Origin: an uncultured Candidatus Saccharibacteria bacterium
GTDB taxonomy: Bacteria > Patescibacteriota > Minisyncoccia > Phycocordibacterales > UBA9973
Length of the DNA stretch: 64,000 bases
Direction of reading: 5' to 3'
Assembly: GCA_964532495.1 (NCBI GenBank)
Contig: CAZHJZ010000003.1
Span: 67,747 to 131,746 of the forward strand
Position 1 is the first letter of the stretch, and every line of letters begins with the position of its first letter. A model generated the notes under the pieces. That model was not told the DNA's origin and made no database searches. It saw nothing but the letters and a program-made list of their open reading frames with translations. Position numbers and translations under genes: made by a program. This document shows positions 20,244 through 59,723 of the stretch, piece after piece.

Positions 20244-20331
20244 TAAACCATACCCGCATAGTTATCTAGTAACGCGGATCATTATATACTGTGTTTCACA
20301 ATTTCGCAATTCGTGTATAATAGACCGGCAT

Positions 20332-31830: not shown

Positions 31831-32904
31831 TTATTTTCCTTCCAAGATCTTGAATACTGCTTCGTTGATCTGGATCTGTTCTACATAATCCTTCGCTCGT
31901 CCTCGATCTGCTCCTGGGTATCCGCGCATGATTTCTTCAATCTGCTTTTCGGTTTCAGCGGCATCGGGAACTACTTTTTCTTGCTTCGCGATTTCTGCGA
32001 TGAGGAGTTCCATCTTCACTCGCTTCTCAGCATCAGCTCGGAGTTCGTCGCGCATCTGCGCTTCCGATTTTCCAAGATGCTTCATGTAGTCATCGTATGA
32101 AAGTCCCATTCCTGAAATATCCATTCGCATTCGATATGTCATGCGGTCGAGCTCAGCTTCAACGAGAACGTTTGGGATAACAGTCGTTGTTCCTTCCAAA
32201 ATCTTTTCCATGATATTCAATCGGTTCGCTTCGCGAGCGCGATTTTCTTTTTCAAGCTTCATGTTATCTCGGAATTTTGTCTTGAAGTCTTCGACGTTCT
32301 CGACATTGCCGAGCGTCTTTACGTATTCGTCAGTGAGTTCCGGAAGTTCTTCTTTGACTGCTTCCGCGCCCTCGACTGGTTCTGGGTTGGCGATGCCTTT
32401 TGCCATGTTTTCTTTTTCGATATTTTCCTTGATTCCTTTCGCGCGCATTTCTCGGATTTCCATCAATGCTTTTTCGAATTCCTCATCGGTAACATCGGTA
32501 GATTCGTCTTTGTGTTCAGCCTTTGCGATCTTCTTATAGTCAGGGAGTTTTACTTCCGGCATGACCGCTGTCTTGATGACGAAGCCGAGAGGATTGCCTT
32601 TGGCGATCTTGGTGATCTGCACTGCAGGTGATCCGATGGCTTCGACTTTGTGTTCAGCAAGAAGCTTTGGGTACATATCCATGATGGCGTGGTTAGCCAT
32701 TTCTTCAAGGATTGCCATTTCTGGAACATTCTTTTCGATAATGCTTTCTGGAGCTTTTCCTTTTCGAAATCCTGGGATCTCGAGATTGCCGCCAACGTGA
32801 CCGATGGCGTGCGAGCGGTAGCTGTCGAAGACTTCAGCGGCGATCTCGCCAGTGAATTCTGCTTCGCCTCCGTCTAATTTTTTGTAAGTTGCTGTGTATG
32901 ACAT
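31831..32904 (-). CDS. tig: trigger factor, short form lacking the FKBP-type PPIase domain
   Basis: N-terminal ribosome-binding domain with GFRKGKAP signature; C-terminal TF arm domain; 357 aa with no PPIase segment. Confidence 0.75.
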   Translation of the reverse strand: MSYTATYKKLDGGEAEFTGEIAAEVFDSYRSHAIGHVGGNLEIPGFRKGKAPESIIEKNVPEMAILEEMANHAIMDMYPKLLAEHKVEAIGSPAVQITKIAKGNPLGFVIKTAVMPEVKLPDYKKIAKAEHKDESTDVTDEEFEKALMEIREMRAKGIKENIEKENMAKGIANPEPVEGAEAVKEELPELTDEYVKTLGNVENVEDFKTKFRDNMKLEKENRAREANRLNIMEKILEGTTTVIPNVLVEAELDRMTYRMRMDISGMGLSYDDYMKHLGKSEAQMRDELRADAEKRVKMELLIAEIAKQEKVVPDAAETEKQIEEIMRGYPGADRGRAKDYVEQIQINEAVFKILEGK

Positions 32905-35648: not shown

Positions 35649-35815
35649 ATGTAGTTTTGCGGTTTTTTCTTAGATATCCTTATTTTTTAAGGGTCTAATA
35701 GAAAACCAGACTATTAAGTTTTAATAAAAAGAGTCGGGCGAAACCGACCGACTAACGTAGGGAATATACCAAAAAACACCCTAAAAGGCAATCTGGTGCT
35801 GTTTTGGATTTGGGG

Positions 35816-35928
35816 GCGCTACGTCATACATCCTTCAGAGGCAACGCCATAAAACTTAGAGAAGTTTTTGGCTCCTGCTCGCGCCGTCGCGCTCCGCAAG
35901 TGCCTCTAAAGGATGTATGACGTAGCGC
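35816..35928. repeat. inverted repeat / hairpin A (28-nt arms, 27/28 complementary, 57-nt loop)
   Basis: GCGCTACGTCATACATCCTTCAGAGGCA (35816-35843) vs TGCCTCTAAAGGATGTATGACGTAGCGC (35901-35928). Confidence 0.8.
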
Positions 35929-35932
35929 TTTG

Positions 35933-35977
35933 ACATCTTCTCTCTATATTCCAATCATCCTCTTTACCGTAAGAGTG
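35933..35977. repeat. copy 1 of a ~50-nt dispersed intergenic repeat (second copy at 43634..43684)
   Basis: Identical 17-mer ACATCTTCTCTCTATAT and 15-mer TTTACCGTAAGAGTG in both copies, divergent middle with shared AATC. Confidence 0.75.
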
Positions 35978-36013
35978 TATTTTGATAATGAGTGGGGCGA
36001 TGAGATGCTCAGG

Positions 36014-36120
36014 GCGCTTGCACTATGTGGCCTTGGAAGGGGCTTGCGGACTGCAGGAGCAGGAGCAAAAATCTCTCAAGATTTTATGCGTACCCTTCCA
36101 AGGCCACATAGTGCAAGCGC
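36014..36120. repeat. inverted repeat / hairpin B (28-nt perfect arms, 51-nt loop)
   Basis: GCGCTTGCACTATGTGGCCTTGGAAGGG (36014-36041) vs CCCTTCCAAGGCCACATAGTGCAAGCGC (36093-36120). Confidence 0.85.
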
Positions 36121-36185
36121 ACAACGATAATATAAATTCAGCATTAAACAGAAAACAATACTGTATGTGATAGAAGTGAATATGA

Positions 36186-36203
36186 TTATCCACATTATCC
36201 ACT
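36186..36203 (+). promoter_or_regulatory. two tandem DnaA-box-like 9-mers
   Basis: TTATCCACA (perfect consensus, 36186-94) directly followed by TTATCCACT (36195-203). Confidence 0.4.
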
Positions 36204-36277
36204 CGCCAGCACTTTACCAATACATATATGTGATACAATATACTCACTATCACTTAATAGAGTATTTATAACTCGTT

Positions 36278-37495
36278 ATGCAAAAATTTTTTACAAAAGA
36301 AATCATCCAAGCGCTCAAGGTCATCGTTCTCGGTCTTGTCCTTGGACTCGGTGTCTCAGTCGTTTCAGCTGACTGGGTTCAGCCATCAGCGCAAGCTCCT
36401 ACTTGTCAGAGCGGCAATCCTGGTTGTGACGCTCCTATCAACGTCTCTTCAAGCAATCAAAGTAAAGATGGACCAGCGTTGGCTTCAAAGTTCAACGTCT
36501 ATGGAATCTTTTCTGCTGATAAGGTTCTCGCATTTAATCAATTGTGGGTAAAGTCAAACACTGTTTCACCAATCAGCCCAACCGCAATTCAGTTTGGCGG
36601 ACGAGCAAACATTGATCTCAGCGATTGGAATCAAGACCCAGCAGTGAATGGTAATGCACGCGATGCTATTCAGATCACAGGTGGTCCTCGAGAGAATTCA
36701 GTTGGTATCATTACAAACAAGCCTCAATTTTACTTCTGGAATACTCCAGGTAATGGATACGCAACAGTGCAGGCAAAGAACATTCAGTTGACTGACGGAA
36801 CTCAAGGCGAAGGAAAAGCTTTGGTGTCAGACGCAAACGGACTTTCTTCATGGAAAGACATTACTCCACCGACACCAACAGTAACTGTCACAGGAGGTGA
36901 TATGGATGTTGTGATCATGGGACACAAGCGTAATGTCACAAACATGTCTGAGTTCAATACTGAAGCATACTGCCCAGCATCTCATCCTATCTTGCTCGGC
37001 GGAGGCGGCGACTGTCAAAGTCCAGCTGCAATAATACAGTCTCACCCAACATATCCTGGCAATGCTCGTCCTCGAACAGAGTATAACTACGATATCGAAA
37101 GTAATGAGCCAGCACAATCAGGATGGACAACAGTCTGCCGCATCCCATCAACTCCGAACGGTAAAGATGTGCACTCATGGGCAATTTGTGGAAAACTTAA
37201 CCCAGTAAGCGTAGTCTTGAATGCACCTGCAACTCCTACTCCAAACTGGGTTCCAGTTGGAAATGGTCCATTGCGAGGTCAAGATAACATAAGCTGTCTC
37301 GCATGGGTTCGTGGCTTGTATCCTACACATACTATCTCGGTAAATGATCTACGAGTAGGTACGCAAACAACTCTTGTTGGCAAATGCGGATACCTTCCAA
37401 TAGGAGGAGGAAACATCATTTATTATCCTGCAGATCAAGCTGTTACCGGAAAATATCCAGTTAACAATACTAACCTCCAGGTTAATCTCTACTAA
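36278..37495 (+). CDS. secreted hypothetical protein
   Basis: N-terminal TM/signal VIVLGLVLGLGVSVVSA; Gly/Asn/Thr-rich mature part. Confidence 0.45.
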   Translation: MQKFFTKEIIQALKVIVLGLVLGLGVSVVSADWVQPSAQAPTCQSGNPGCDAPINVSSSNQSKDGPALASKFNVYGIFSADKVLAFNQLWVKSNTVSPISPTAIQFGGRANIDLSDWNQDPAVNGNARDAIQITGGPRENSVGIITNKPQFYFWNTPGNGYATVQAKNIQLTDGTQGEGKALVSDANGLSSWKDITPPTPTVTVTGGDMDVVIMGHKRNVTNMSEFNTEAYCPASHPILLGGGGDCQSPAAIIQSHPTYPGNARPRTEYNYDIESNEPAQSGWTTVCRIPSTPNGKDVHSWAICGKLNPVSVVLNAPATPTPNWVPVGNGPLRGQDNISCLAWVRGLYPTHTISVNDLRVGTQTTLVGKCGYLPIGGGNIIYYPADQAVTGKYPVNNTNLQVNLY

Positions 37496-37512
37496 ATAAA
37501 GTATTGATAAAT

Positions 37513-37546
37513 AAAAAGCCCGGCGCCGTAGGCGCCGGGCTTTTGT
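37513..37546. terminator. bidirectional rho-independent terminator
   Basis: aaaaagcccggcgcc-gta-ggcgccgggctttt. Confidence 0.85.
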
Positions 37547-37633
37547 ATTGATTAGGATCATCTATACAAACAAATAAAAAAACTGCATATCCAAAAGGAT
37601 ATGCAGCGTTGTATTTTAAAATCGAATTTCGAA

Positions 37634-38965
37634 CTATTGAACTATTAATTTATGGCCGTTTACAAAATGTAAACCGGTTGAAAGTGTTTGCGTGTTAATT
37701 GTTGTTTTGGTTCCTATCGACGAAGCGATAAGTTCTGTCCTACCAAGTAAATCGGTAATAACTATATTCTCTCCCTGTGGAACGCCATCAATAGTGATGA
37801 AGTCTTTTGTCGGGTTAGGATACATTGTTATTCTTGTAGAAGACAGATTTTGAATACCTGAAACCAAACTTGTTGGAGTGAAAATCCCACCCATAGACCA
37901 ACCAACGTAATTGTTTGGAGCTACTTCTAGTAGGTTTGTCATTCCGATATCAAGTCCTCCAATGGGAGATTGTTCTACAGTATTTGTACTTTCGTTAAAT
38001 ACTAAGCTTTTACCCATTATTGAGGTGGTATTGTCAGCCAAAGTCAGGCCGTCAAACCCACTCATTGTAGTTATTGCCACTTTGTCGCCTAGTAGACCTA
38101 TGCAACGGATGCCGAAGCCTCCATTGTGTTCAAAGGCAATTAATGACCAATCAGCAGAGCCGATTTTACGGTAGATGCAATCACCCAATGAATTAGGGCC
38201 TGCTGCATATACTGTGTCACCGTGTCCAATTAAGGCATAACATGCATTCATTTCCAAACCATTTGAAAGGTTAGTGAATGTTTGCGCGTGTAGGTCATAC
38301 ATAGTTGCGCCTGCGCGGCCTGCTATGTAAACCTTGCCATCCGGGGAGCAATAAATGCGCCCTGGTGTGTTGTAGGTTCCGAAACCGTCGCCAACTTTTA
38401 GAACTTCACCGGTAATAGTATTTAATGTGCAAATACCATTTACTTCTACGCCGTTCACATATTTCATGTATCCAATCAGCAACAAAAGTGAGTTGTTTAT
38501 TGTATACATATTGGTAATGGTGGTATCAGCGGTAAGTGTTACAGTTGTGGAAGTTTCAGTCGCAAGATCGTATTTATACAATCGAACTTCGCCTGAATAT
38601 AAGCCTGCATAGTACATACTATTGCCCTGAAAGGCTAAGCTCGTAACAGCGTCGCCCGAACTTAGAGATGCTAAGCCAGGTAGTGCGGTTGGGTTGCTGC
38701 TATTGCCGTTTTCAAATTTGGCAATGCCGTTGAAGCTCTGAGTAAGGCCATTTGATATTGAGGTCCCAGTTATGGGGCCTGTAGCATAGTAGTCGTTACC
38801 GTGAACAGTCATGTTTACGGTTTTTACATCGCTCGAGTTATCGAACGGTAGTGATGTTCTAAATACAAACTCTGGTCCAGAATTGCCTGCTGCTTGTGCA
38901 GTAGAAATTCCTGTAATAGCCAAAAGGGCTATGAAAAGCGCGAGTGTACGGAAATTTGGTTTCAT
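37634..38965 (-). CDS. secreted protein with T9SS (Por) type-A C-terminal sorting domain
   Basis: Signal peptide MKPNFRTLALFIALLAITGISTAQA; C-terminus ITMYPNPTKDFITIDG...ITDLLGRTEL...TGLHFV...KLIVQ matches the Por_Secre_tail pattern. Confidence 0.6.
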   Translation of the reverse strand: MKPNFRTLALFIALLAITGISTAQAAGNSGPEFVFRTSLPFDNSSDVKTVNMTVHGNDYYATGPITGTSISNGLTQSFNGIAKFENGNSSNPTALPGLASLSSGDAVTSLAFQGNSMYYAGLYSGEVRLYKYDLATETSTTVTLTADTTITNMYTINNSLLLLIGYMKYVNGVEVNGICTLNTITGEVLKVGDGFGTYNTPGRIYCSPDGKVYIAGRAGATMYDLHAQTFTNLSNGLEMNACYALIGHGDTVYAAGPNSLGDCIYRKIGSADWSLIAFEHNGGFGIRCIGLLGDKVAITTMSGFDGLTLADNTTSIMGKSLVFNESTNTVEQSPIGGLDIGMTNLLEVAPNNYVGWSMGGIFTPTSLVSGIQNLSSTRITMYPNPTKDFITIDGVPQGENIVITDLLGRTELIASSIGTKTTINTQTLSTGLHFVNGHKLIVQ

Positions 38966-39219
38966 ATTTTCTATTATTTTTTTTGATTGTGAAAGGACGG
39001 AAATCGGCTAGTAGTTAGCCTAGGCATATAGTTTACCATAAACAATACCGCTTGTCAATATTAAATCATAAAATGCTTGATTTGTATAGGTTTACTTATC
39101 CACACGCAGGGGAAAACCTGCTTACTCTCAGCGCTTACTGTGGTACAATAATTCAAGTAATAATAATTTCTTTTCTTATGCGAGAAACACTTCACACTAT
39201 CTCACCGCTCACTAATCCG

Positions 39220-39525
39220 ATGGATCAAATGCGATCCAGACGGGGAATTGCAATCGGGCTTATCTTGGTCGGTCTTCTTATCGTCGCTGCCGCAGTTGGA
39301 TATTATTTTTATCGAAAGCATGTAGCTGAAACTATTTCAAATCGCGTGCTCACTACTGAAGAGAAAAACGCCATCATTAGCGAAATGAACAAGCTTGGCG
39401 GACCAACACTTACTCCTGCTCAAAAAGAATCCGTCATCGAAGCACAGAGCAAAGTAGTTGCTGATACCAAAACCCTCAGTGCTGAAGAAAAATCTGACAT
39501 TATCAAGCAAATGAATTCACGCTAA
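39220..39525 (+). CDS. membrane-anchored small protein, hypothetical
   Basis: MDQMRSRRGIAIGLILVGLLIVAAAVGYYFY anchor; stop 1 nt before the next gene; start trimmed from ORF 39052. Confidence 0.35.
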   Translation: MDQMRSRRGIAIGLILVGLLIVAAAVGYYFYRKHVAETISNRVLTTEEKNAIISEMNKLGGPTLTPAQKESVIEAQSKVVADTKTLSAEEKSDIIKQMNSR

Positions 39526-39526
39526 T

Positions 39527-41584
39527 ATGAAAAACATTTTTTCGTTTAGAAATATCTTTCTCGCCTTTGCGTTCGTATTGGCAATTTCATTCTCACAGTT
39601 CTTTTCTGTACAAGCCCAACTTGTTGGCGGCCAGCAGATCGGACAGATCGGGGTTCAGTGCAATCCAACAGCATACAATGTTCATGGACAGATTTTTCAT
39701 TCTACTATCGGATGGATTTATCTTAACTGCGCTGACTATACGAATGGCATTACTCGAAATTTTGGAGTACAGCAATTTACAGATGGAACTTGGAGCGGAT
39801 ACGGATGGTCATCATCAATGGGATGGATTAAGTTCGGCGGCGTAGGCTGTCCTCCAGGCGCATCAGCGGCAACCGGAGCAACAAACTGCGAGGTGCAGCA
39901 TTTGAACCTAGCAGGAGCTTCATATCCTCTCGTGGGATGGGCTCGCGCATGTACGATGGCCCCAGGTTCTTCTGGCTGCGGAAGCAACCCAACCAATAGC
40001 CAGCCTACTACGACTTCCAATGATGGCTGGATCTCCATGAGTGGATTGAATGACCAAAACTGGAGTGCAGGAGGCGTTCAGACAACTAATAAATATGTTT
40101 CTAATCTTGGTTTAGCTCCTAACGGACGACAGCCAGTCAACGGTTATGTATGGGGAGGCGATGTCATGGGTTGGGGAAAATTTATGGGAGCATATGTTGA
40201 TGTTAATAACAGTTCTATCGGAGTAAACATCACACTCACTTCTAGCCTCGCTTCAGTAACCACTCAAAATGTAGTTCTTACGTACAAGATGGATGATCCT
40301 ACACAAAAGGCATACTTCACTGGTCAGCCATGTACCGCAACAACAACTACGACTCCAGTTTCTGGCAGCCCATGGGATGGTAGTAAAGCAAACTTCTCCG
40401 CAAGCTCAACAACATTTAGCAAAGATGTACAAAACGTTGTAGTTCCTGCACCAATCGGTTCATCGACGACTTACAAGATCAGCTGTCCGGTAAGCGGCAT
40501 TCCTAACTCAACGCAGAGTGAAGCAGTTGCGACTGTTACTGTCGAGAAGACAGGACTCAGTGGTACTCTCACTATCCCAACACATGATATGTGTATTGCG
40601 GGATCACAAGGAAATCCTCAGAACACTACTGCTACATGGATTGGCCCTGCAGGAGCAGTAACTGCAAAATTGTTCCAGGACGGAGTTGTTACTAATATTC
40701 AAAGCCAGCAAGTTATGGTAGGTTCGATGGTACTCGGTCCATTTACTACGGCAACATCATCACCAAACTATGTTACTCCGACTGCGCCAGGCAGCCACCA
40801 TGAATATTGGATGGAGTGGTATGACGCATCAGGCACATTGCTTGCTACAAGCAACAACGGCCAGCATGAATTCCTTGGTGTAGCACCTGCAACATTCCAT
40901 GGAGCTACTGCGAATGGAACCCTCGATTGTACTCAGGCAGAATGGGGTATCAGTCTCGGCGGCGGAGGCATTATCTGTCCCGCAGATCCTGGAACTCTTG
41001 CTTGGGAACCATGGGGAACTATTCCAGCTCAATATACAAAAGCAAAGTTGTTGCTCAGTACTAATGGTGTAAATGGCGCATACTCTACAACGGTAGGAAG
41101 TCATGATCGTTTGAGAGATAGTGAACCTAACGTCTTCCTTGCTGGCTGGTATAAAGTTGCTTACTACGACATTAACGGAAATGAAGCACCAATCTCAAGT
41201 CCTCCAATCAATGTCACTCTCAGTCCTAATGATCCAAGCGGAGGATGTTCGCATCACTTCAATGGAATCACGAGCGCTGGCCCATTCTGTCCTGCAGGAT
41301 CAGTAAACACCGCTGCTCTCTTGCCAAAGACATACGCATGGACTTCTGACGCTGCAAGCTGCGCCCTCAATACTATGGGCGGCGTAACATTGCCAGCAAA
41401 CGGTTCCACTACGATTTCAAGCCTCAATGTCGGATCAACATCTACGAGAGTGCTTACCTGTACTTGGACTGACGGATTTACTGCAACAAGCAGAGCCGTG
41501 TTTGGCCCAATGAAAACTGCGGATTCTGACTTCTGTAAGTCGATCCACAAGCCGGGAGGTTATCCAAGCGTTATTGAGAACTAA
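39527..41584 (+). CDS. large secreted hypothetical protein (685 aa)
   Basis: Signal peptide MKNIFSFRNIFLAFAFVLAISFSQFFSVQAQ; Gly/Thr/Ser/Asn-rich, Cys pairs. Confidence 0.45.
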   Translation: MKNIFSFRNIFLAFAFVLAISFSQFFSVQAQLVGGQQIGQIGVQCNPTAYNVHGQIFHSTIGWIYLNCADYTNGITRNFGVQQFTDGTWSGYGWSSSMGWIKFGGVGCPPGASAATGATNCEVQHLNLAGASYPLVGWARACTMAPGSSGCGSNPTNSQPTTTSNDGWISMSGLNDQNWSAGGVQTTNKYVSNLGLAPNGRQPVNGYVWGGDVMGWGKFMGAYVDVNNSSIGVNITLTSSLASVTTQNVVLTYKMDDPTQKAYFTGQPCTATTTTTPVSGSPWDGSKANFSASSTTFSKDVQNVVVPAPIGSSTTYKISCPVSGIPNSTQSEAVATVTVEKTGLSGTLTIPTHDMCIAGSQGNPQNTTATWIGPAGAVTAKLFQDGVVTNIQSQQVMVGSMVLGPFTTATSSPNYVTPTAPGSHHEYWMEWYDASGTLLATSNNGQHEFLGVAPATFHGATANGTLDCTQAEWGISLGGGGIICPADPGTLAWEPWGTIPAQYTKAKLLLSTNGVNGAYSTTVGSHDRLRDSEPNVFLAGWYKVAYYDINGNEAPISSPPINVTLSPNDPSGGCSHHFNGITSAGPFCPAGSVNTAALLPKTYAWTSDAASCALNTMGGVTLPANGSTTISSLNVGSTSTRVLTCTWTDGFTATSRAVFGPMKTADSDFCKSIHKPGGYPSVIEN

Positions 41585-41599
41585 GGATAGATACAATAC

Positions 41600-41630
41600 A
41601 AAGGGCGGCCGCGAAGCGGCCGCCCTTTGT
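41600..41630 (+). terminator. rho-independent terminator directly upstream of tpiA
   Basis: aagggcggccgc-gaa-gcggccgccctttgtg. Confidence 0.8.
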
Positions 41631-50337: not shown

Positions 50338-52995
50338 ATGAAAAAATATATATTGGGGCTTATGCTCGCTTTAACCATCACTGGTTACGCAGCACAGGCG
50401 CACGCTGTATCGTTTGACGATCTTCTGCAAGAGATCAACAATCTAAAACAGCAGGTTTCTAATCTTCGAGGAGAACTCGGGGCGGCAGTTTATCGGGCAA
50501 CAGCAATTTCAGCTCAGCCAAAAGCAATGTCGGCGATAAGTACAAATGTAACAGCAGCAATTGCTACACCAGTTGATTTATATGCCCCAGGACTGACGTA
50601 TCGATATGTGGATGGCGGATGTCAGGCATATGACGGTAACGCATGGGTTGGGACTGTAACTTCTACAAATAGAACATGTGGAGCTATCGTCGTACCTACT
50701 CAAGTTTCAGCTAAGGCCGCTTTAGATGCTAAAGCCGGTCTTAATATCGGAGATATGGGGGAGACAACTTCAAATCAGCCAGGAACAACAGTACAATCAA
50801 ATGAACCTACAAAGCCTGAAGTTCCTACTTCATACATTGTAAGCCAACAGCCAACAGTCGTTGCTGCTCCAGCTGTGACTGTATCTTTTACGCACAACCT
50901 TACAATTGGTGAGCGAGGAGCTGAAGTTAAAAAACTCCAGGACGAGCTTGTTAGAAAGGGTTATCTTACATCTGATAACGCAACTAGCTTCTACGGCAAA
51001 GCAACTGCTGCTGCAGTCATGTCTTTCCAGCGAGCAAATGGCATCAATGATGACGGAACAGTTGTTGGTCCAAAGACACAGATGCTTCTCAATGGCGGCG
51101 TAAGCGCCCAGGCACAGACTCCATCAGGAACTGGAACTCCTGCATCAAGCATTTTGCCACCCGGCTGTACTTCATTCGTTGGATATAGCACGTTTAACGG
51201 ACAGCCTTGCGGCGCAAATATTCAAGTTGCTCAGATAGGATGGGTTTGCCAGTTCAATCCAAATGCAGCTCCTAAGCTTAAAGTGACTTCCCCAGATGGA
51301 GGAGAAATATATACAGCTGGTCAGCCGATCACTGTTACTTGGAAAACATGCAACATTCCTTCATCAGCATATGTTGATATTTTCCTGACTTTCCCAGGTA
51401 TTAACCAAGGAGTGAATCTTACTCACACACTCAATGACGGATCACAAGTAGTGACGTTGCCTTCAACCTCAACTTGGGGACAGATGGTGTATGGTCAGAA
51501 CTACAAGATAACAATTGTCGGGGCAGCAACTGATGCATCGGATAATTTGTTTACGATCAATGCCCCAGTTCAGACCATTGCAGTGCTTTCTGTAGCTAAA
51601 AATACTGCGTACGCAAACCAGACGCAGAGTCCTAACACAGCAGGTGTTAAGATCGGGTCATATGTGCTTCAGAACAACAGCACAACTGAAAGCTTCCGCA
51701 TAACTTCATTTGGTGTCGGTATCAGCGGTACTGCTCCACTTTCAGATCTTTCAAACCTCCGTACTTCAGAAACCTCAGGTTCAGGCTCAGTGCCAATCGT
51801 TCCTCAGGCTTCAAACAATTTCGCAGTTAACTTTATTCTTGCTCCAGGAGCATCAAAGATTGTCGACATTTTTGCTGATACAGGATCAGCAAGCGGCGTA
51901 AATGTTGTTACGACACTTTCTGTTACTGGTGTTAGTATGGTAAACAATGTAACTTTGATTCCTGCTGCAACTGGTCAAACAATTACTTTGGCGGCAGGAA
52001 CGCTTATGACTCCTACTCTCATTGTTTCTTCCTCGACTCAGTCACAGTACATTGCTGCTGGTGGTACTGGCGCAACAGACGCAACACGAGCAACATATAA
52101 CCTTACTTCATCAGGCGGATCGGTAACTATTTCTGATCTCAAATTTACTATCTCTGGTTCAGCAGTTAATCCAGTTACTAGTATTAAAGTGAATGGTAGT
52201 TCTGCACCAGTTGTCGCTAATGTTGCTTGGCTCACTGGCCTCAACATTGCTGTTCCGAACGGAGGGGCAGGGACAAATGTAGATGTTTTGGTAAGCTATG
52301 CTCCAGTCGGAACAAATGGAGTTCCATCAAACACTACTGCAGCTATTAGCCTGACATATGTTAAATACAATTCAGGCGGAGTAGTTTCAGTTATGACTCC
52401 TACAATTCCAGCTCCAACTATGACATTGGTTGGATCAAAGCCTACTGTTAGTGTAAACACTGCAGTAACTTCCGGTTTACTCCTAGGTGCTGAAAATAAA
52501 ATTGGCCAAGTTACTCTCACCGCAGATCCAAAAGGAAACATAAAGATAAACGATCTAGCGTTTACCTACAATCTTGCCAACTTCAATTCATTGGCGATCT
52601 CAAATGTTCGAATTGCTGATGGCCTAACCACAGTGCAAGGCACTAGTTGCGGAATCTCTGATGTAACTGATGCAATTTTCTGTGAGTTTGCCATGACAGG
52701 AAACACAATGTCTTCGGGAAATAACAGCTTTAATACCGAATCAAATTTCGATTTTGACGGGTATACAATTGCAGCTGGTACATCGAAAACATTTAACTTG
52801 TACGCGACATTGGTTGGTACATCAAACGGATATGGAATTGTTTCTACCTCATTAAATCGATATGGATTTAATTGGGATGATACTGCAACAGCATCATTTG
52901 TTGGTGACAACATTTCTGCTACTGGCAGCGGTACGAATTTGGGAGCTCAGTTAATCTATAATTTCCCAACTGGCTCGTACTCAATTAGACAGTAA
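50338..52995 (+). CDS. large secreted protein with PG_binding_1 domain (885 aa)
   Basis: Signal peptide; conserved post-signal module VSFDDLLQEINNLKQQVSNLRGELGAAV; PG-binding domain GERGAEVKKLQDELVRKGYL...DGTVVGPKTQ; T/S/G/N-rich remainder. Confidence 0.55.
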   Translation: MKKYILGLMLALTITGYAAQAHAVSFDDLLQEINNLKQQVSNLRGELGAAVYRATAISAQPKAMSAISTNVTAAIATPVDLYAPGLTYRYVDGGCQAYDGNAWVGTVTSTNRTCGAIVVPTQVSAKAALDAKAGLNIGDMGETTSNQPGTTVQSNEPTKPEVPTSYIVSQQPTVVAAPAVTVSFTHNLTIGERGAEVKKLQDELVRKGYLTSDNATSFYGKATAAAVMSFQRANGINDDGTVVGPKTQMLLNGGVSAQAQTPSGTGTPASSILPPGCTSFVGYSTFNGQPCGANIQVAQIGWVCQFNPNAAPKLKVTSPDGGEIYTAGQPITVTWKTCNIPSSAYVDIFLTFPGINQGVNLTHTLNDGSQVVTLPSTSTWGQMVYGQNYKITIVGAATDASDNLFTINAPVQTIAVLSVAKNTAYANQTQSPNTAGVKIGSYVLQNNSTTESFRITSFGVGISGTAPLSDLSNLRTSETSGSGSVPIVPQASNNFAVNFILAPGASKIVDIFADTGSASGVNVVTTLSVTGVSMVNNVTLIPAATGQTITLAAGTLMTPTLIVSSSTQSQYIAAGGTGATDATRATYNLTSSGGSVTISDLKFTISGSAVNPVTSIKVNGSSAPVVANVAWLTGLNIAVPNGGAGTNVDVLVSYAPVGTNGVPSNTTAAISLTYVKYNSGGVVSVMTPTIPAPTMTLVGSKPTVSVNTAVTSGLLLGAENKIGQVTLTADPKGNIKINDLAFTYNLANFNSLAISNVRIADGLTTVQGTSCGISDVTDAIFCEFAMTGNTMSSGNNSFNTESNFDFDGYTIAAGTSKTFNLYATLVGTSNGYGIVSTSLNRYGFNWDDTATASFVGDNISATGSGTNLGAQLIYNFPTGSYSIRQ

Positions 52996-53081
52996 GAAAC
53001 AGGTCTGAAAGACGAGAACTAAAAACACAGAGCGACGCCTGCGGCGTCGCTCTGTGTTTTATTATATCTATACTTTATTTT

Positions 53082-54884
53082 TTAAATGCAGCTATGATTC
53101 CAAATCGTAGTCGGTACTACCGGAGTCTGCATCTGTCCCGGCGGCGGTGTCGTTTCGAGCATGAAGATCATGTCATAGTTTACGAGCTGTTTTTCTTGAG
53201 AATGGCTGGCATTCCATTGTCGGCACAAAAACTTGCCATACCCAAGCCGATACTCTGAGAAATCGCGTCCCCACAGATTCATGAGATATTTCTGCCAACG
53301 CTGGTTCTTGTACATGTATGCGACCCATTCTGGTTTTGCGTACGATACTCCTTCTTTTCCTGAGAAGACATCTACTGCAGTACCATCGGCCAATTTTCCT
53401 GGGAAGACGTACCATCCATCTTCGGTGAGCGGCGTAGGCGCAAACATATTGAATTTTTGATCAAGGTGAGTGAACCAGCCGATACCGAGAAGTTGCGGCG
53501 GAATGATCTGCTTGCTGTTTCCAAGCGTATCAAGATTCCATGCTACTACGTAGAAGGTCAAAAAAATGACGACTAGTGTGACAATTGTTATGCCAGCCTT
53601 TTTCAACCCAGTTGGTTCTTCTTCGGTTGGTTCTGGAATGCATACTTGTTTTCGTTTATGCGAAAGATACGCATACAATTTTTCTCCGAAGAAATTCATA
53701 AACGGAAGACTAAGTATTGGAGCTGTCCAAAAAAAGATTGGTGAATGTCGAACGAGCGCCACCGCTACGCCCCAGCTTGTGTGTGTTGAGCCTTTTTCGT
53801 CGGTAATAACCCAAGAATTCTTTTTCATCATGTATGCCTCAATCGCAGGATCGGTGTGGGCGGGTTTAATTTCAGTTTCTGGATGAAGTAATAATACTCG
53901 CTTCATGAAGAAGCTTGTCTTGTAGCAAAAGCTGCACTCAAAATCATAATACACAGTAAGCCCTTTTTTGCCTTTGGATGCGATCCAACCGGTAAAGCGA
54001 TTCCACCCATCATTCCAAAAACCAGAGGGTAGTAGTCCGAGTGTCACGACAACAGCTATTGCACCGAAGAGACCAAGACGCATGGAGCTATTGAATCCAA
54101 TTTGCAAACAAGCGAATACAAAGATGCCGAATGTTCGGAAAAATCCTGTTGCAACTGGAGAAAAGAAAAGAAGTACTCCATACATTTCTATATACCAGGT
54201 AACATGGGTGAGTACACTCATTGTTCCTGGGAATTCTCGAAGGATCATTCCGACTGGAGCGATTAGCTGATCAACATTGAGCGCGTAGTAGACAGCAGTG
54301 CCATCATGCCAAGCAGTACCAGTTTTTAATAGTCCGGTAAATACATAGAGCAAGCAGATCTGTATTATGTACGCGACTGTAGCCGCAGAGAAAACCGTTT
54401 CCTTGGTTGGCTGGGGAACGCGATTGAACAACCGATCAAGCGACCATACGCGCCCAAGCGGGAGAAACATCATCCAGAAAAGAACAGAACGGAATAGCAC
54501 ATCTCCTCCTTGAAGTACCATTGGGTTTCGGACATGAAGGGAAATAAGAAGGAACCATGAGACAATCATTGCGAGGCGTGTTCGGTATCCAAAAATCAGC
54601 ATAAGGGCGAAGATGCCGGCAATAACGAAAAGCAATGCTTCAAAACCTGTCAGGCCGCTTGCCATATGAATCGAGATCCACCATTTATTTTCCCAGAGGC
54701 GCAAGAGATCTACTCGAGGCAGCACGCCGGCATCTGAGTAAAATGTTCGCAGATCAAATGACCGCTGAATCAGATCAAGAATAATAATGATTCCAGTTCC
54801 GATTCGAAGGACGGCGAGGGAACGATAGTCTAAGGAGAACCATTCTCGAACTTTGCTGATAATCAGGTACGCAATGTTTTTCAT
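53082..54884 (-). CDS. HTTM (gamma-carboxylase-like) membrane domain fused to DCC/DUF393 thiol-disulfide oxidoreductase domain
   Basis: HTTM N-terminus LAVLRIGTGIIIILDLIQRSFDLRTFYSDAGVLP..., multi-TM; DCC motif TVYYDFECSFCYKTSFFMKRV (CxxC); ~200-aa C-terminal extension. Confidence 0.7.
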   Translation of the reverse strand: MKNIAYLIISKVREWFSLDYRSLAVLRIGTGIIIILDLIQRSFDLRTFYSDAGVLPRVDLLRLWENKWWISIHMASGLTGFEALLFVIAGIFALMLIFGYRTRLAMIVSWFLLISLHVRNPMVLQGGDVLFRSVLFWMMFLPLGRVWSLDRLFNRVPQPTKETVFSAATVAYIIQICLLYVFTGLLKTGTAWHDGTAVYYALNVDQLIAPVGMILREFPGTMSVLTHVTWYIEMYGVLLFFSPVATGFFRTFGIFVFACLQIGFNSSMRLGLFGAIAVVVTLGLLPSGFWNDGWNRFTGWIASKGKKGLTVYYDFECSFCYKTSFFMKRVLLLHPETEIKPAHTDPAIEAYMMKKNSWVITDEKGSTHTSWGVAVALVRHSPIFFWTAPILSLPFMNFFGEKLYAYLSHKRKQVCIPEPTEEEPTGLKKAGITIVTLVVIFLTFYVVAWNLDTLGNSKQIIPPQLLGIGWFTHLDQKFNMFAPTPLTEDGWYVFPGKLADGTAVDVFSGKEGVSYAKPEWVAYMYKNQRWQKYLMNLWGRDFSEYRLGYGKFLCRQWNASHSQEKQLVNYDMIFMLETTPPPGQMQTPVVPTTIWNHSCI

Positions 54885-54953
54885 ATGTGGAAGTATACCA
54901 AACTGTGCATTACTCTAATAGCAGGGTAATTGCCTCGGTGATACAATATATAC

Positions 54954-55541
54954 ATGCAACAGCAAAACACGGTAACAAATTTCCTTTTGGGAATTATCGC
55001 GATCGCATTAGTATTAATTGTGATTTTTTTATTCGTACAAAAGAAGCCTGTAGTTCAGATGCAGAATCAGGATATGTATGGACAGCGGCCAGAGGTTCCT
55101 TTGAACAATCAAAATACTGGAACAATGCAGAATACAACAGGAACACAGGCTAACAGTCCGATTGTTTCTGTAAACAGCTCACAAAGCCAAACGTATCCGA
55201 TAACAGCTATTGCAACAAATAGCGATGATCCTCACATAGCAGGTGCTATCCCTGGTTCAAATGAACCGGCAAATTTTAACGGGCACTATAATGTAGTATT
55301 TATTGGCTGCGGATCAGGATGTGCGAATCCTGCGTTATATGACAGAACAAGCCGTACAATGTACAACTTCCCAGCAGCAATGCTGAGCGGAGCTCTTGCG
55401 GATAATGGCGCTATGGCAGATATTCCTTGGATGAGTTATGACGTAGCAAGTCCTGCTATCAGTCTTAAGAAAAAGAATTCAGCTGGAGCTTTATATATTG
55501 AGCAGTGGAAAATGGTAGGTAGTGGTTTTGTTAAACAATAA
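54954..55541 (+). CDS. membrane-anchored/secreted hypothetical protein
   Basis: TM anchor FLLGIIAIALVLIVIFLFV, Gln/Asn/Thr-rich linker, Cys pair GCGSGC. Confidence 0.4.
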   Translation: MQQQNTVTNFLLGIIAIALVLIVIFLFVQKKPVVQMQNQDMYGQRPEVPLNNQNTGTMQNTTGTQANSPIVSVNSSQSQTYPITAIATNSDDPHIAGAIPGSNEPANFNGHYNVVFIGCGSGCANPALYDRTSRTMYNFPAAMLSGALADNGAMADIPWMSYDVASPAISLKKKNSAGALYIEQWKMVGSGFVKQ

Positions 55542-55562
55542 GAAGGTTACGTGTAATTAATA

Positions 55563-55598
55563 CAAAGAGCGCGCGGGCTTCGCCCGCGCGCTCTTTGT
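55563..55598 (+). terminator. rho-independent terminator
   Basis: aaagagcgcgcgggc-ttcg-cccgcgcgctcttt. Confidence 0.85.
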
Positions 55599-55604
55599 AT
55601 TTCA

Positions 55605-55633
55605 TTGCTAATCCACCTAAGCTATGGGATACT
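55605..55633 (+). promoter_or_regulatory. conserved promoter (TTGCTA-17-GATACT), copy 1 of 3
   Basis: Same -35/-10 hexamers and 17-bp spacing as at 57717 and 59687; ATG start ~9 nt after the -10. Confidence 0.55.
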
Positions 55634-55641
55634 TTTCTCAT

Positions 55642-57690
55642 ATGAAACCATCATTTGCATTGCTAACTCTTTCAGTTGTAGCACTCGGCTTTCTTAGCAT
55701 CGCTCCCATTCATGACTTGAAAACTATTGGTCAAAACAGTCCCGCTGCAGTTCTCGCAGGCTTGCGTGCAGCTACAGACCGTACAATATATACTCCGAAG
55801 ACAATGGAAGGGGTTCTCGAGGTTACTCACTTCGATGACTTCAATTCAGGAGAAAATACTCCTGTCGTCGATCTTGTCACCAAAACAGGCACAGTCCATG
55901 TAGATATTGGAACAATTGATCATGATCAATTACCTGTTTCTGGTTCGACGGTCCGTATCAATGGCAGTTATGGAAACAATACGCTTAAGATTTCCGAGCT
56001 CGCTTCAGTAACTGAATTGAAAAGTGCACCTCAGACGCCAGGAGCAACATTGACTGGAAGCCGTTCTAATCCTACTCCGAAAAAAATATCAATCGTCCTA
56101 TTTAACTACAGCAACGATCCAGGCCAGCCGTTTACCAAGGAAGACGTCCGTAAGACATATTTCGAACCGAATGCAGACTCAGGCATCACCATGTCAGAGT
56201 TCTTGAAAAAATCTACGTATGACCAAATGTCGCTAGAAGGAAAGACATCCGTGAATGGAACGACTGATGTCTGGGGATGGTATACACTTCCAATAACTAG
56301 AACTCATTGTGATTCAGCGCCAGAACTAGTAACAAACGGCCATCGCGCGATCGCTATGGCAGTGCAAGCTGGTATGCAAGTTGGTCCTGATGATATTGTC
56401 GCCGTAGGAACATTTCCATATAGTGGCTGTACTACTGGCGGAGTTGTGTCAGTAGGCAATGCCGGGACTGCTCAGTATCGATCTATACATATGTCCAATA
56501 TGCTTGCATGGGGAGGAGCATTGCATGAGCTTGCTCATATTTCAAAAATTATTCCAGCTACGAGTAGTTTTAATACATCGAATTTTTTACAGCATTCAAA
56601 CGCGTTTGAATGTGTACTTGCTGGTGTTACTGTACCGTATGATACACAAGGTTCAACCTGTGCTATACATGAGTACGCTAGTCCATTTAGTATTCTGGGT
56701 GGATATACTTCTGGAGCCATGCGGGCACGCCTTATGGATGGACAGAACAGAATTGAGGGAGGATATCTCGGAATAAGTAATATTGTCGGTGGTGGAGCGA
56801 CAGGAGGAACATATGATTTAACGAAAGTTAATTACACCGATGCACAGATTTTACGGATACCAATTTATGTACAGCCGATATATTTGAATGGGACGAGAAT
56901 ACATACAGGCCGATCTGCTTATATTGAAGTGGAACCGCGAGATTTTCTTCCATTTGAACAAGCCGCTGATACATTTCCTAACACTGATGTTGTACTTATT
57001 CGCTGGAAAAGAGGTAGTGACTTTTCCGCATTGCTGCGACCCAAGTTAAATAGCAGGTTGCTTGCCCCTGGTCAATCATTTTACATTCCAAGCCTCGGAA
57101 CTACGATAACAAACCAAGGAGCCACGCCCGGTAATAACCGCAAAGTTCGAGTAACTGCTACATATGATACTGGCTCAATAACAGAAATTGAGCCGCAAAA
57201 GATCACATTCGGGTCAATTACTCCACAAAAAACGACTATCCAATCTTCGGGATCATTTGCGCACCCAATGCTTGCAGGTACGATTACAGGAGAATGGGGA
57301 GATCTAGTAGTTTGGCCGCATGACCCTGTTCGAATTTTCCCAGTAGGAGGCAGTCAACCTCTCGACGCTGTTATTGCATCATCCATGAACGGCTGGTCAG
57401 CGCAAGGCATACCGACGGGAACAAATAATTTTAATTTGGACGTATTAGGTGCTTTACATATTAGCCCTACCAAGCTTGTTGGGCAGAGCCGTTCTATTTA
57501 TAAGATAATGGTGAATATTAATCCTTTTAGTTTTAACACTCTTGTACCTGATGTGCCCATCTATCTAATGTATGGAACATTTTCATTTCAAGAACTTACG
57601 AATCTGGGAGTAATAACGATGCCAACTCCAACGGCAGCACAAATCAATCTCACTGGTGCTACGCAGGCGACATTCCCACGACAAAAATAG
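55642..57690 (+). CDS. secreted protein with HExxH motif (putative zinc metallopeptidase)
   Basis: Signal peptide MKPSFALLTLSVVALGFLSIAP; LAWGGALHELAHI contains HExxH; start trimmed from ORF 55624 (MGYFSH extension is promoter DNA). Confidence 0.45.
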   Translation: MKPSFALLTLSVVALGFLSIAPIHDLKTIGQNSPAAVLAGLRAATDRTIYTPKTMEGVLEVTHFDDFNSGENTPVVDLVTKTGTVHVDIGTIDHDQLPVSGSTVRINGSYGNNTLKISELASVTELKSAPQTPGATLTGSRSNPTPKKISIVLFNYSNDPGQPFTKEDVRKTYFEPNADSGITMSEFLKKSTYDQMSLEGKTSVNGTTDVWGWYTLPITRTHCDSAPELVTNGHRAIAMAVQAGMQVGPDDIVAVGTFPYSGCTTGGVVSVGNAGTAQYRSIHMSNMLAWGGALHELAHISKIIPATSSFNTSNFLQHSNAFECVLAGVTVPYDTQGSTCAIHEYASPFSILGGYTSGAMRARLMDGQNRIEGGYLGISNIVGGGATGGTYDLTKVNYTDAQILRIPIYVQPIYLNGTRIHTGRSAYIEVEPRDFLPFEQAADTFPNTDVVLIRWKRGSDFSALLRPKLNSRLLAPGQSFYIPSLGTTITNQGATPGNNRKVRVTATYDTGSITEIEPQKITFGSITPQKTTIQSSGSFAHPMLAGTITGEWGDLVVWPHDPVRIFPVGGSQPLDAVIASSMNGWSAQGIPTGTNNFNLDVLGALHISPTKLVGQSRSIYKIMVNINPFSFNTLVPDVPIYLMYGTFSFQELTNLGVITMPTPTAAQINLTGATQATFPRQK

Positions 57691-57716
57691 ACTGTCTGTA
57701 TTGTGGACTACTTGAA

Positions 57717-57745
57717 TTGCTAACCCGTATCTCATATGGGATACT
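57717..57745 (+). promoter_or_regulatory. conserved promoter (TTGCTA-17-GATACT), copy 2 of 3
   Basis: ttgcta-acccgtatctcatatgg-gatact, then tttcactat ATG. Confidence 0.55.
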
Positions 57746-57753
57746 TTCACTAT

Positions 57754-59616: not shown

Positions 59617-59650
59617 CGTTCTTGGTTTTAGGCAAAAATACTATTTCATA

Positions 59651-59683
59651 AACAGGCCGGGCGCGAAGCGTCCGGCTTGTTTT
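59651..59683 (+). terminator. rho-independent terminator
   Basis: aaacaggccgggcgc-gaa-gcgtccggcttgtttt. Confidence 0.8.
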
Positions 59684-59686
59684 GCA

Positions 59687-59715
59687 TTGCCAACTTCCAA
59701 AACCCATGAGATACT
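59687..59715 (+). promoter_or_regulatory. conserved promoter (TTGCCA-17-GATACT), copy 3 of 3
   Basis: ttgcca-acttccaaaacccatga-gatact, then ttaatcat ATG. Confidence 0.5.
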
Positions 59716-59723
59716 TTAATCAT

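Follow-up and report, generated by a model that had tools for sequence, protein, structure and literature searches.

The 443-residue protein p443, encoded by a bacterium whose genes place it among the Patescibacteria/CPR (Paceibacteria type) and outside the FCB/Bacteroidota, ends in a genuine type-A T9SS-type C-terminal domain (CTD). Reviews describe T9SS and CTD-bearing proteins as limited to the FCB superphylum, and p443 presents a canonical type-A CTD outside it, contrary to that stated limit (PMC12398890). The domain is stably inherited behind a conserved predicted promoter and has been kept despite extreme divergence of the rest of p443, in a lineage described as being without the membrane across which T9SS transports its cargo. 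Given that the host group is described as lacking an outer membrane, the CTD in p443 probably does a job other than T9SS tagging.

Results

The gene content of the window, as we call the whole 64-kb stretch of DNA that was analyzed, is compatible with CPR. By PGK, NusA, and RecJ, the closest genomes are Paceibacterota and Nomurabacteria MAGs, with PGK being 83 to 85% identical to Paceibacterota MAGs and 55% identical to Nomurabacteria. RNase Y is encoded in the window, the trigger factor consists of N and C domains only, and ComEC is divided between two genes, one Competence and one Lactamase_B; the view of the initial annotation that this DNA looks unlike Bacteroidota was thereby upheld. A Pfam scan of the ~55 window genes identified no T9SS genes (the machinery set considered being SprA/Sov, PorV, PorU, PorZ, and PorK/L/M/N or GldK/L/M/N), as had also been noted initially. 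Furthermore, T9SS, C25-peptidase, and outer-membrane families were found neither among the genes of the window nor in the Pfam lists precomputed for loci L088 and L089, and no outer-membrane markers were present in the 64-kb window. Patescibacteria are monoderm by description (PMC11665869), and the outer membrane has been proposed to be missing from them (PMC12102498). From the 64-kb window and this literature, we infer that the T9SS machinery is absent from the lineage.

p443 is encoded on the minus strand (37634..38965, including the stop codon) and comprises a signal peptide, a seven-bladed β-propeller, a flexible linker, and the CTD (residues 378 to 443; 37637..37834, minus strand), with a terminator-like hairpin and T-run directly downstream of the stop codon (37582..37607, minus strand). 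Inspection and hydropathy (15-aa peak of 2.29) point to a Sec signal peptide at residues 1 to 25 (38891..38965, minus strand), MKPNFRTLALFIALLAITGISTAQA, with cleavage between AQA and the following A. In the AlphaFold2 model of p443 (pLDDT 81.8), residues 1 to 29 have low pLDDT, and a disordered linker precedes the CTD sandwich. The propeller spans residues ~30 to 365 (37871..38878, minus strand). Besides the CTD, no Pfam family matched p443 at E ≤ 1, including the named propeller families (Kelch, Reg_prop, and others). With a dN/dS of 0.21, the propeller is under purifying selection.

The presence of a type-A CTD at the end of the 443-aa protein, first proposed from reading the sequence, was confirmed by HMM searches. 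Residues 381 to 436 scored 33.2 bits against PF18962 Por_Secre_tail (gathering cut-off 27; E of 6e-8) and the C-terminus scored 30.5 bits against TIGR04183 (cut-off 23), neither value falling below its threshold. The CTDs of orthologues scored 34.9, 33.1, 31.6, and 37.4 bits, and that of L003 scored 20.6 bits, which is under the Pfam cut-off. The family profile also matched solved T9SS CTDs (8glj_D, 8glk_D, PorZ 5m11, lipase 7pzj, and 5jvk), and the top Foldseek match of the p443 model was PorZ, a propeller and CTD protein. An exhaustive phmmer search over 1.84 billion representatives returned 127 matches solely via residues ~365 to 436; all 127 lay no more than 16 residues from the C-terminus of the target, and the same limit applied to the end of the domain in 135/135 proteins that have it.

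In the AlphaFold2 model, the CTD is predicted to fold as a seven-strand Ig-like sandwich over residues 380 to 442 (strands 380-384, 389-393, 400-405, 410-415, 420-424, 431-435, and 438-442; pLDDT 72 to 85). It carries the motifs YPNP (B), (D/N)xxG (D), and GxY/F with a terminal Lys (E), and in an alignment with an HMM built from 124 independent CTDs, all strongly conserved positions were present. Within the family, P383, N384, P385, and G408 do not vary at all and conservation reaches at least 90% at Y382, G431, F434, and K439, while the Asp of motif D is frequently replaced by N and the final β-hairpin is ~8 to 10 residues shorter in most members. The CTD was uninterrupted in all 13 diverged orthologues examined, and it is slightly more conserved than the propeller (mean pairwise identity 40% versus 36%). 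For the CTD alone (66 codons), dN/dS was 0.42 with a bootstrap interval of 0.13 to 1.6, a range that does not demonstrate short-term constraint.

All four open reading frames listed for this block in the initial annotation are present at the positions given there, and the gene order NusA, p405, CTD protein, small TM protein, p685, TIM-PGK is the same in all clade loci that extend across this site. The whole block was found in L002, L003, L005, and L089, and parts of it at contig ends in L082, L094, L098, and L099. The foreign composition that might be expected of the proposed horizontally acquired cargo was not seen, as each of the four genes has GC and synonymous codon usage inside the window's own range (z of -1.36 to +0.53). 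Thus, the CTD gene is vertically inherited in the clade; a recent transfer is not supported by the native composition and clade-wide synteny, and what stands of the cargo proposal is an old acquisition in the clade ancestor, which is plausible. In L004, a more distant Nomurabacteria locus, a p405/p685-type island lies between NusA and TIM, and the CTD gene is missing. Evolution of the block is very rapid. In L089, the relative furthest away (PGK 81%, NusA 86%), the propeller was found only by hhalign profile comparison (97.4% probability, 18% identity), and the CTD is full-length, with 37.4 bits across the complete TIGR04183 model. The nearest full-length relative outside the clade, P0011, is on contigs of <2 kb.

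Signal peptides had been assigned to all four products of the block. This holds, by inspection and hydropathy, for p405, p443, and p685; the small gene instead encodes a signal-anchor that is not cleaved. Its start, previously placed at 39220, is most likely the ATG at 39178, judging from the substitutions at third positions and from the genes called in L082 and L089, which are 117 aa long. The resulting single-pass membrane protein of 115 aa, p115 (39178..39525, plus strand; hydropathy peak 3.08), has a short N-terminal tail, a TM segment at residues ~24 to 45, and an extracytoplasmic part of ~70 residues in which the repeat T/SxEEKxxIIxxMN occurs twice, and its stop codon is 1 nt ahead of the start of p685. 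The secreted, all-β p685 (39527..41584, plus strand; 685 aa, 16 Cys) has a signal peptide ending in ...FSVQA before Q. Its Trp/Gly-rich N-module (residues 1 to 230) is common across Paceibacteria and its C-terminal part is clade-specific, the latter looking like Ig-like sandwiches in an AlphaFold2 model of low confidence (pLDDT 65); ten close homologues were found and no known domain. A GC-rich hairpin with a 15-bp stem (41598..41630) lies between p685 and tpiA. On the other side, the secreted p405 (36278..37495, plus strand; 405 aa, 8 Cys), whose signal peptide ends in ...VSVVSA before DW, had no match in Pfam, NCBIfam, PHROG, or PDB. Its N-module (residues 1 to 120) is common to many Paceibacteria proteins and recurs in L004, L015, L031, L039, and L089, its C-terminal domain was found in the clade only, and its orthologues are 29 to 48% identical. 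The p405 stop codon is followed by a perfect GC-rich hairpin with a 14-bp stem (37514..37544), resembling a bidirectional terminator.

Between the CTD gene and p115 lies a conserved divergent control region (39014..39177), with 76 to 80% nucleotide identity across the clade versus 30 to 50% amino acid identity of the flanking proteins. It contains a predicted promoter for the CTD gene on the minus strand (39058->39030; -35 TTGACA, extended -10 TGgTAAACT), the invariant block TTGTATAGgTTTACTTATCCACA, and, for the plus-strand p115/p685 operon, the extended -10 TGTGGTACAAT at 39139-39149. The CTD gene is linked to the p115/p685 operon via this conserved, predicted divergent promoter region.

With our own CTD HMM on six-frame ORFs, the 64-kb window yielded a single CTD gene, and CPR loci from outside the clade, 722 kb in total, yielded none. 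CTDs are rare in this other CPR DNA, and a multi-protein CTD cargo repertoire was not present in the regions examined. For comparison, Bacteroidota have roughly 30 CTD proteins per genome, with >3000 of type A in 104 genomes (PMC12398890). A second CPR CTD, also canonical, was found on an unrelated 248-aa protein of Candidatus Nomurabacteria RIFCSPHIGHO2_02_FULL_33_12. Among CTDs with a named source, the nearest belong to Bacteroidota, with Chitinophagales/Sphingobacteriales MAGs and Wandonia haliotis among them.

Discussion

On balance, we think it fairly probable that p443 carries an ancient T9SS-cargo-type module, exported by Sec only and retained as a binding or anchoring domain, with a T9SS-like route being unsupported. 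The genes between nusA and tpiA-pgk would form a fast-evolving island of extracytoplasmic proteins, in which p405 and p685 appear to be native CPR modular surface proteins with a conserved N-module and a variable C-terminal part. The minus-strand CTD gene would have been inserted into this native island in the clade ancestor; that the insertion came later is suggested by the wide distribution of the p405 and p685 N-modules in Paceibacteria and by the L004 island, which is without the CTD gene. The source of the module would most likely be an FCB-type T9SS cargo gene, long ago. Transcription of the gene would start from the near-consensus promoter in the control region shared with the p115/p685 operon, and p443 would cross the single membrane via Sec. 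Since T9SS has no task without an outer membrane, the CTD would not be a translocation signal; it may rather be a small, flexibly tethered Ig-like sandwich, holding or presenting a ligand-binding propeller at the cell surface, with its partner most plausibly coming from the co-regulated island (p115, p685, p405) or from the wall. The propeller would then be the variable, target-facing part, evolving fast as symbiont surface proteins do. With no recognizable anchor once the signal peptide is cleaved, p443 may also simply be released.

It could be argued that a T9SS-bearing bacterium was the source of a captured gene and that only the propeller matters, leaving the CTD as a neutral relic. The CTD dN/dS of 0.42, whose interval takes in 1, the CTD conservation barely above that of the propeller, the shortened last hairpin in most members, and the L003 score below the Pfam cut-off would all fit a relic. 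However, a useless 70-residue tail would be expected to be lost in some lineages over such distance, while the CTD is uninterrupted in 13/13 diverged orthologues with P383, N384, P385, and G408 invariant, and in L089 it remains full-length where the propeller is down to 18% identity; we therefore regard this explanation as unlikely. Misassembly or mis-binning of a Bacteroidota gene into a CPR contig, for which nothing speaks beyond the unusual taxonomic combination, has practically no chance of being correct and is effectively refuted by synteny: the CTD gene is at the same site, flanked by CPR housekeeping genes, in assemblies made independently by different projects (NCBI, ENA, JGI, and Logan), and its codon usage agrees with the contig.

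The remaining possibilities give the CTD a recognition partner of the T9SS kind. PorV is the binding partner of CTDs in other bacteria and has been structurally characterized. If the CPR bacterium lived on a T9SS-bearing Bacteroidota host, a displayed or released CTD could dock on the host PorV or attachment complex and so exploit the cargo handling of the host for adhesion or for delivery of the propeller. Residues of the PorV-binding fold are retained in a lineage that would seem to have no need of them, among them the C-terminal Lys, which contacts PorV according to the part of PMC12398890 that cites Lauber 2024. The CTD sits on a flexible tether, its gene is in a quickly evolving surface island of the sort expected where symbiont and host meet, an independent CTD protein exists in a second CPR lineage, and the closest named CTDs are those of Bacteroidota. 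Still, no precedent was found in the literature, the shortened terminal hairpin of most members deviates from canonical CTDs, and the conserved residues may be mere fold determinants, which makes such mimicry quite unlikely in our judgment. The more specific proposal, that the counterfeit cargo tag of an episymbiont fits the PorV/attachment-complex pocket of a Bacteroidota host for docking or processing, we consider very unlikely; if true, a secretion signal would have been turned into an inter-species adhesion or delivery device, and the Nomurabacteria CTD protein would mark a recurrent CPR strategy. A T9SS-like export route in the lineage itself, raised in the initial annotation, or a PorU-like sortase suited to a monoderm envelope, or else a hidden outer layer, would account for CTD conservation throughout the clade and for the canonical CTD on the unrelated Nomurabacteria protein. 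However, each region examined has a single CTD gene and the 722 kb of CPR DNA from elsewhere has none, T9SS, C25-peptidase, and outer-membrane families are missing from the window genes and from the L088 and L089 lists, and reviews confine T9SS to the FCB superphylum and call Patescibacteria monoderm; we therefore view an own CTD-recognizing route as a long shot.

The CTD fold can evidently live outside secretion, and a TIGR04183/PF18962 match in metagenomic bins is neither proof of a T9SS substrate nor a Bacteroidota marker. The four-gene, co-regulated, fast-evolving island also gives experiments on the surface biology of CPR a tractable starting point.

The CTD of p443 resembles those of Bacteroidota cargo in its position at the extreme C-terminus after a flexible linker, in a protein with an N-terminal Sec signal, and in its seven-strand Ig-like sandwich with YPNP, (D/N)xxG, GxY/F, and a terminal Lys. 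It differs in having a host outside the FCB, in being a single gene rather than one of tens per genome, in its mostly shortened last hairpin, and in the lack of machinery genes in the 64-kb window. The best Foldseek match, PorZ of Porphyromonas gingivalis (PDB 5m11; E of 2.3e-11), acts inside the T9SS attachment complex and shares with p443 a propeller and a C-terminal CTD, but PorZ has two propellers in 776 aa, p443 has one of seven blades, and the overall TM-score is low (0.33/0.22). p443 was rejected as a PorZ, as the NCBIfam equivalog NF052228 gave no match and the modeled propeller is single. The periplasmic sensor propellers of Bacteroides hybrid two-component systems (BT4663/BT4673; PDB 4a2l and 3ott) are also among the closest known systems. 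A blade sequence type like that of p443 occurs in P0012 and P0013, CPR pilin-linked or giant propeller-repeat surface proteins on a 494-kb contig, which matched p443 residues ~165 to 266 in phmmer (E of 8e-17 and 7e-8, respectively). Both are extracytoplasmic and are encoded next to further giant genes (2373 and 3487 aa) whose function is unknown, and unlike p443, both are without a CTD. The N-terminus of P0013 is type IV pilin-like, and P0012 has 11 repeats in 2838 aa. Faint Kelch/DUF6923 matches were seen on P0012 only.

A type-A C-terminal sorting domain on a β-propeller protein

The initial annotation had assigned a type IX secretion system (T9SS)-type C-terminal sorting domain (CTD) to p443, a protein with a Sec signal, a seven-bladed β-propeller, and a linker preceding the domain. 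Profile searches confirmed this assignment, since residues 381 to 436 passed the cut-offs of both PF18962 (33.2 bits; cut-off, 27) and TIGR04183 (30.5 bits; cut-off, 23). The p443 family profile also matched the solved CTDs of T9SS cargo or component proteins (5jvk, the lipase 7pzj, and PorZ, 5m11), as well as the F. johnsoniae cargo CTDs 8glj and 8glk. An AlphaFold2 model of p443 obtained with the family alignment (pLDDT 81.8, pTM 0.72) displayed a propeller at residues 30 to 365, a disordered linker at 367 to 376, and a seven-strand sandwich at 380 to 442. In an exhaustive phmmer scan covering 1.84 billion representatives, only 11 full-length members of the p443 family were identified, and 127 further proteins matched p443 solely via residues ~365 to 436. 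The CTD ended ≤16 residues from the C-terminus in 135 of 135 proteins, and the CTD matches that carried an organism name were from Bacteroidota (Prevotellaceae, Wandonia haliotis, Sphingobacteriales, and Chitinophagales). All strongly conserved CTD positions, i.e., YPNP, (D/N)xxG, GxY/F, and the terminal Lys, were present in the p443 family, although comparison with an HMM derived from 124 independent CTDs showed that the last hairpin was ~8 to 10 residues shorter in most family members. We conclude that p443 carries a genuine T9SS-type CTD.

The CTD gene is native to a CPR clade

The host had been described initially as unlike Bacteroidota, and both PGK identity and gene content placed it in the CPR. 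PGK was 83 to 85% identical to that of three Paceibacterota-type MAGs (loci L002, L003, and L005) and ~55% identical to that of Nomurabacteria, and the window encodes many small unknown genes together with the three features already listed in that description, namely, RNase Y, a split ComEC, and a trigger factor without a PPIase domain. The latter (31831 to 32904, 357 aa) consists of Trigger_N and Trigger_C only, the central PPIase domain being absent. In agreement with the initial annotation, which had reported no T9SS machinery in the window, no outer-membrane or T9SS family was seen among the window genes.

The block order NusA, p405, CTD protein (opposite strand), small transmembrane (TM) protein, p685, TIM, and PGK was found in L002, L003, L005, and the more distant L089, and the partial contigs L082, L094, L098, and L099 had the same arrangement. 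The CTD gene was present in every locus spanning the site. All four genes had GC, GC3, and synonymous-codon likelihood values inside the window range (z −1.36 to +0.53), and these values, together with the syntenic block in relatives, ruled out a recent horizontal transfer; the earlier proposal of a horizontally acquired cargo therefore did not hold in that form. With the block conserved and codon usage in range, a recent transfer and an assembly artefact can both be dismissed; the host is a CPR bacterium, and the CTD gene is native to its clade.

Gene layout and control region

Four genuine genes, arranged as three transcription units, occupy the region from 36278 to 41584. Downstream of p405 (36278 to 37495, + strand) lies a strong hairpin (37514 to 37544), and p443 (37634 to 38965, − strand) has its own terminator (37607 to 37582) and a near-consensus promoter (39058 to 39030, − strand) with the −35 element TTGACA and an extended −10. 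p685 (39527 to 41584, + strand) starts 1 nt past the stop codon of the small membrane protein and is followed by a hairpin at 41598 to 41630. The non-coding gap between nusA and p405 (35649 to 36277, 630 bp) is unusually long; its ends (about positions 1 to 148 and 561 to 629) are conserved in relatives, and its middle is not. The only Rfam families found in the window were tRNAs.

For the small TM protein, a mechanical listing gave a 157-aa ORF (39052 to 39525), the initial annotation had chosen a start at 39220, and an in-frame ATG lies at 39178. In an alignment of seven clade loci, invariant promoter elements were located 5′ of ATG 39178 and substitutions 3′ of it were mostly at third positions, and the gene calls at L082 and L089 (117 aa) agreed with this start. 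The other two starts were therefore dropped, and 115 aa is the most likely length (p115). The protein has a short tail at its N-terminus, a single TM helix, and ~70 outside residues with two T/SxEEKxxIIxxMN repeats, and is a signal-anchor protein without a cleaved signal. Thus, among the four genes initially credited with signal peptides, p405, p443, and p685 retain this description, with classical signal-peptide-like N-termini by inspection and hydropathy, and the small gene does not.

The divergent intergenic region (39014 to 39177) that separates the CTD gene from the small TM gene was 76 to 80% identical at the DNA level across the clade, compared to 30 to 50% for the flanking proteins. 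It contains two promoters and an invariant block, TTGTATAGgTTTACTTATCCACA (~39085 to 39110), which has no obvious role and may be an operator. The high identity of this region speaks for an expressed CTD gene that shares its regulation with the p115-p685 operon.

Divergence of the island and persistence of the CTD

Sequence divergence is far more rapid in the island than in its flanks, with identities of 30 to 36% for the CTD protein, 29 to 48% for p405, and 36 to 50% for p685, compared to 86 to 94% for NusA and 81 to 85% for PGK. Against the 92%-identical relative L094, the first 357 residues of p685 were 99% identical and p443 was 92% identical. The dN/dS of the propeller was 0.21 (0.13 to 0.33); that of the CTD alone was 0.42 (interval, 0.13 to 1.6), with too few differences to constrain it. 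At greater distances, the CTD persists longer than the propeller. The positional orthologue in L089 could be matched to p443 solely in a profile-profile comparison (97.4% probability, 18% identity), BLAST detected its CTD only, and this CTD covered the complete TIGR04183 model (37.4 bits).

Occurrence in other CPR loci and origin of the gene

A CTD HMM built in-house was run on six-frame ORFs from the window and 48 CPR loci (781 kb, of which 722 kb lay outside the clade). Only the orthologous CTD gene matched in the full 781 kb, ruling out the CTD as a common CPR module. A protein found elsewhere shows that it does occur, rarely, in CPR beyond this clade. P0015 (248 aa; L090:10001-10747, also L091), unrelated to p443 outside the CTD, has a fully canonical type-A CTD ending in KFLKR, and its contigs encode a ValRS with 100% identity to the one in Candidatus Nomurabacteria bacterium RIFCSPHIGHO2_02_FULL_33_12. 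A possible third case, P0016 (703 aa, canonical CTD; L092:4314-6425, also L093), lies among small genes and a fragmented ribosomal-protein operon (L5, S8, then unrelated genes), with an L5 only ~40% identical to that of CPR loci.

The N-terminal modules of p405 (residues 1 to 120) and p685 (1 to 230) are shared with many loci of Paceibacteria (Nomura-, Yonath-, Taylorbacteria, and others), and the C-terminal parts of both proteins are clade-specific. At the Nomurabacteria locus L004, four p405/p685-type proteins, all on the same strand, lie between NusA and TIM, with no CTD gene among them. Given this distribution, the CTD gene looks like a later insertion, in the ancestor of the clade, into a pre-existing surface-protein island. 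The p405 module consists of a signal and a W..P..AP.. motif, and that of p685 of Trp/Gly-rich GW repeats. Families with these modules and variable C-terminal domains (L004:3817-9160, L006, L009, L015, L031, L038, L039, and L040) are often near tpiA-pgk, and one member in L004 has a Gly_rich_2 domain (PF21722). Neither p405 nor p685 had a sequence match in Pfam, NCBIfam, PHROG, or PDB; the p685 alignment, used as a metagenome-scan seed, retrieved 3 loci only (the family alignment of the CTD protein was too divergent for this use), and the p685 AlphaFold2 model was of low confidence (pLDDT 65, pTM 0.36) and was therefore not used for a fold search.

The p443 blade type also occurs in the CTD-less proteins P0012 and P0013, on a 494-kb contig with CPR-like features, namely, giant neighbouring genes and the type IV pilin-like N-terminus of P0013. 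This contig (ctg50616; L087:1-28517) has four consecutive giant genes of at least 1018, 2373, 2838, and at least 3487 aa; P0012 contains 11 copies of the blade, and in P0013 the pilin-like segment (G|FTIIELLVV) is fused to the same blades. The nearest full-length relative outside the clade, P0011, has a canonical CTD and is on contigs of <2 kb. Either the whole gene or the CTD only may have come from an FCB donor.

Possible roles of the CTD

According to reviews, T9SS and CTD proteins are limited to the FCB superphylum, where the CTD marks a protein for passage through the outer membrane by way of SprA and PorV, with cleavage by PorU and attachment to A-LPS as the next steps (PMC12398890). For Patescibacteria, a monoderm envelope has been described (PMC11665869; PMC12102498), and our literature search returned nothing relevant linking T9SS or CTDs with CPR/Patescibacteria. 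From the 64 kb and this literature, we infer that T9SS genes are absent host-wide. A known sorting domain has been stably maintained in a lineage in which the mechanism known for it would not be expected to operate. If there is only one membrane, export by Sec alone would be enough for p443, and this, together with the lack of a cargo repertoire and of visible machinery, suggests that the CTD has been kept as an Ig-like module on a flexible tether. It would anchor or present the variable propeller, with a putative partner most plausibly from the same co-regulated island, and we consider this explanation probable.

That the CTD is instead a neutral relic seems unlikely to us. The fold-defining and PorV-contacting residues are kept, which lends appeal to the idea that p443 may mimic cargo and engage PorV or the attachment complex of a Bacteroidota host, a putative role that we regard as quite unlikely. 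The T9SS-like export route proposed initially would amount to a cryptic, lineage-specific way of handling CTDs; with neither cargo repertoire nor machinery in sight, nothing spoke positively for it, and we judge it very improbable. An artefact has next to no probability, contamination and chimerism being ruled out by the same arrangement in independent NCBI, ENA, JGI, and Logan assemblies. The retained, anchoring or presenting module remains our preferred reading.

Other features of the window

At 50338 to 60686, the window has another run of large proteins, which are probably extracytoplasmic and have a low GC3 (0.31 to 0.33). It comprises an 885-aa protein with PG_binding_1, a 600-aa HTTM-domain membrane protein on the opposite strand, a 688-aa protein with no domain, a 626-aa Kelch-repeat protein, and a 334-aa protein with two PG_binding_1 domains; none of the proteins in this run has a CTD. 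Between rpsG (S7) and fusA (EF-G, the next gene in L096), a 329-aa ORF without a Pfam match (62949 to 63938) breaks the usual str operon order. Finally, within 18681 to 20257, the mechanically listed GTG start (20243) of the CCA-adding enzyme ORF overlaps tRNA-Gly(GCC) (20186 to 20257) on the same strand, and the true start must be further downstream.
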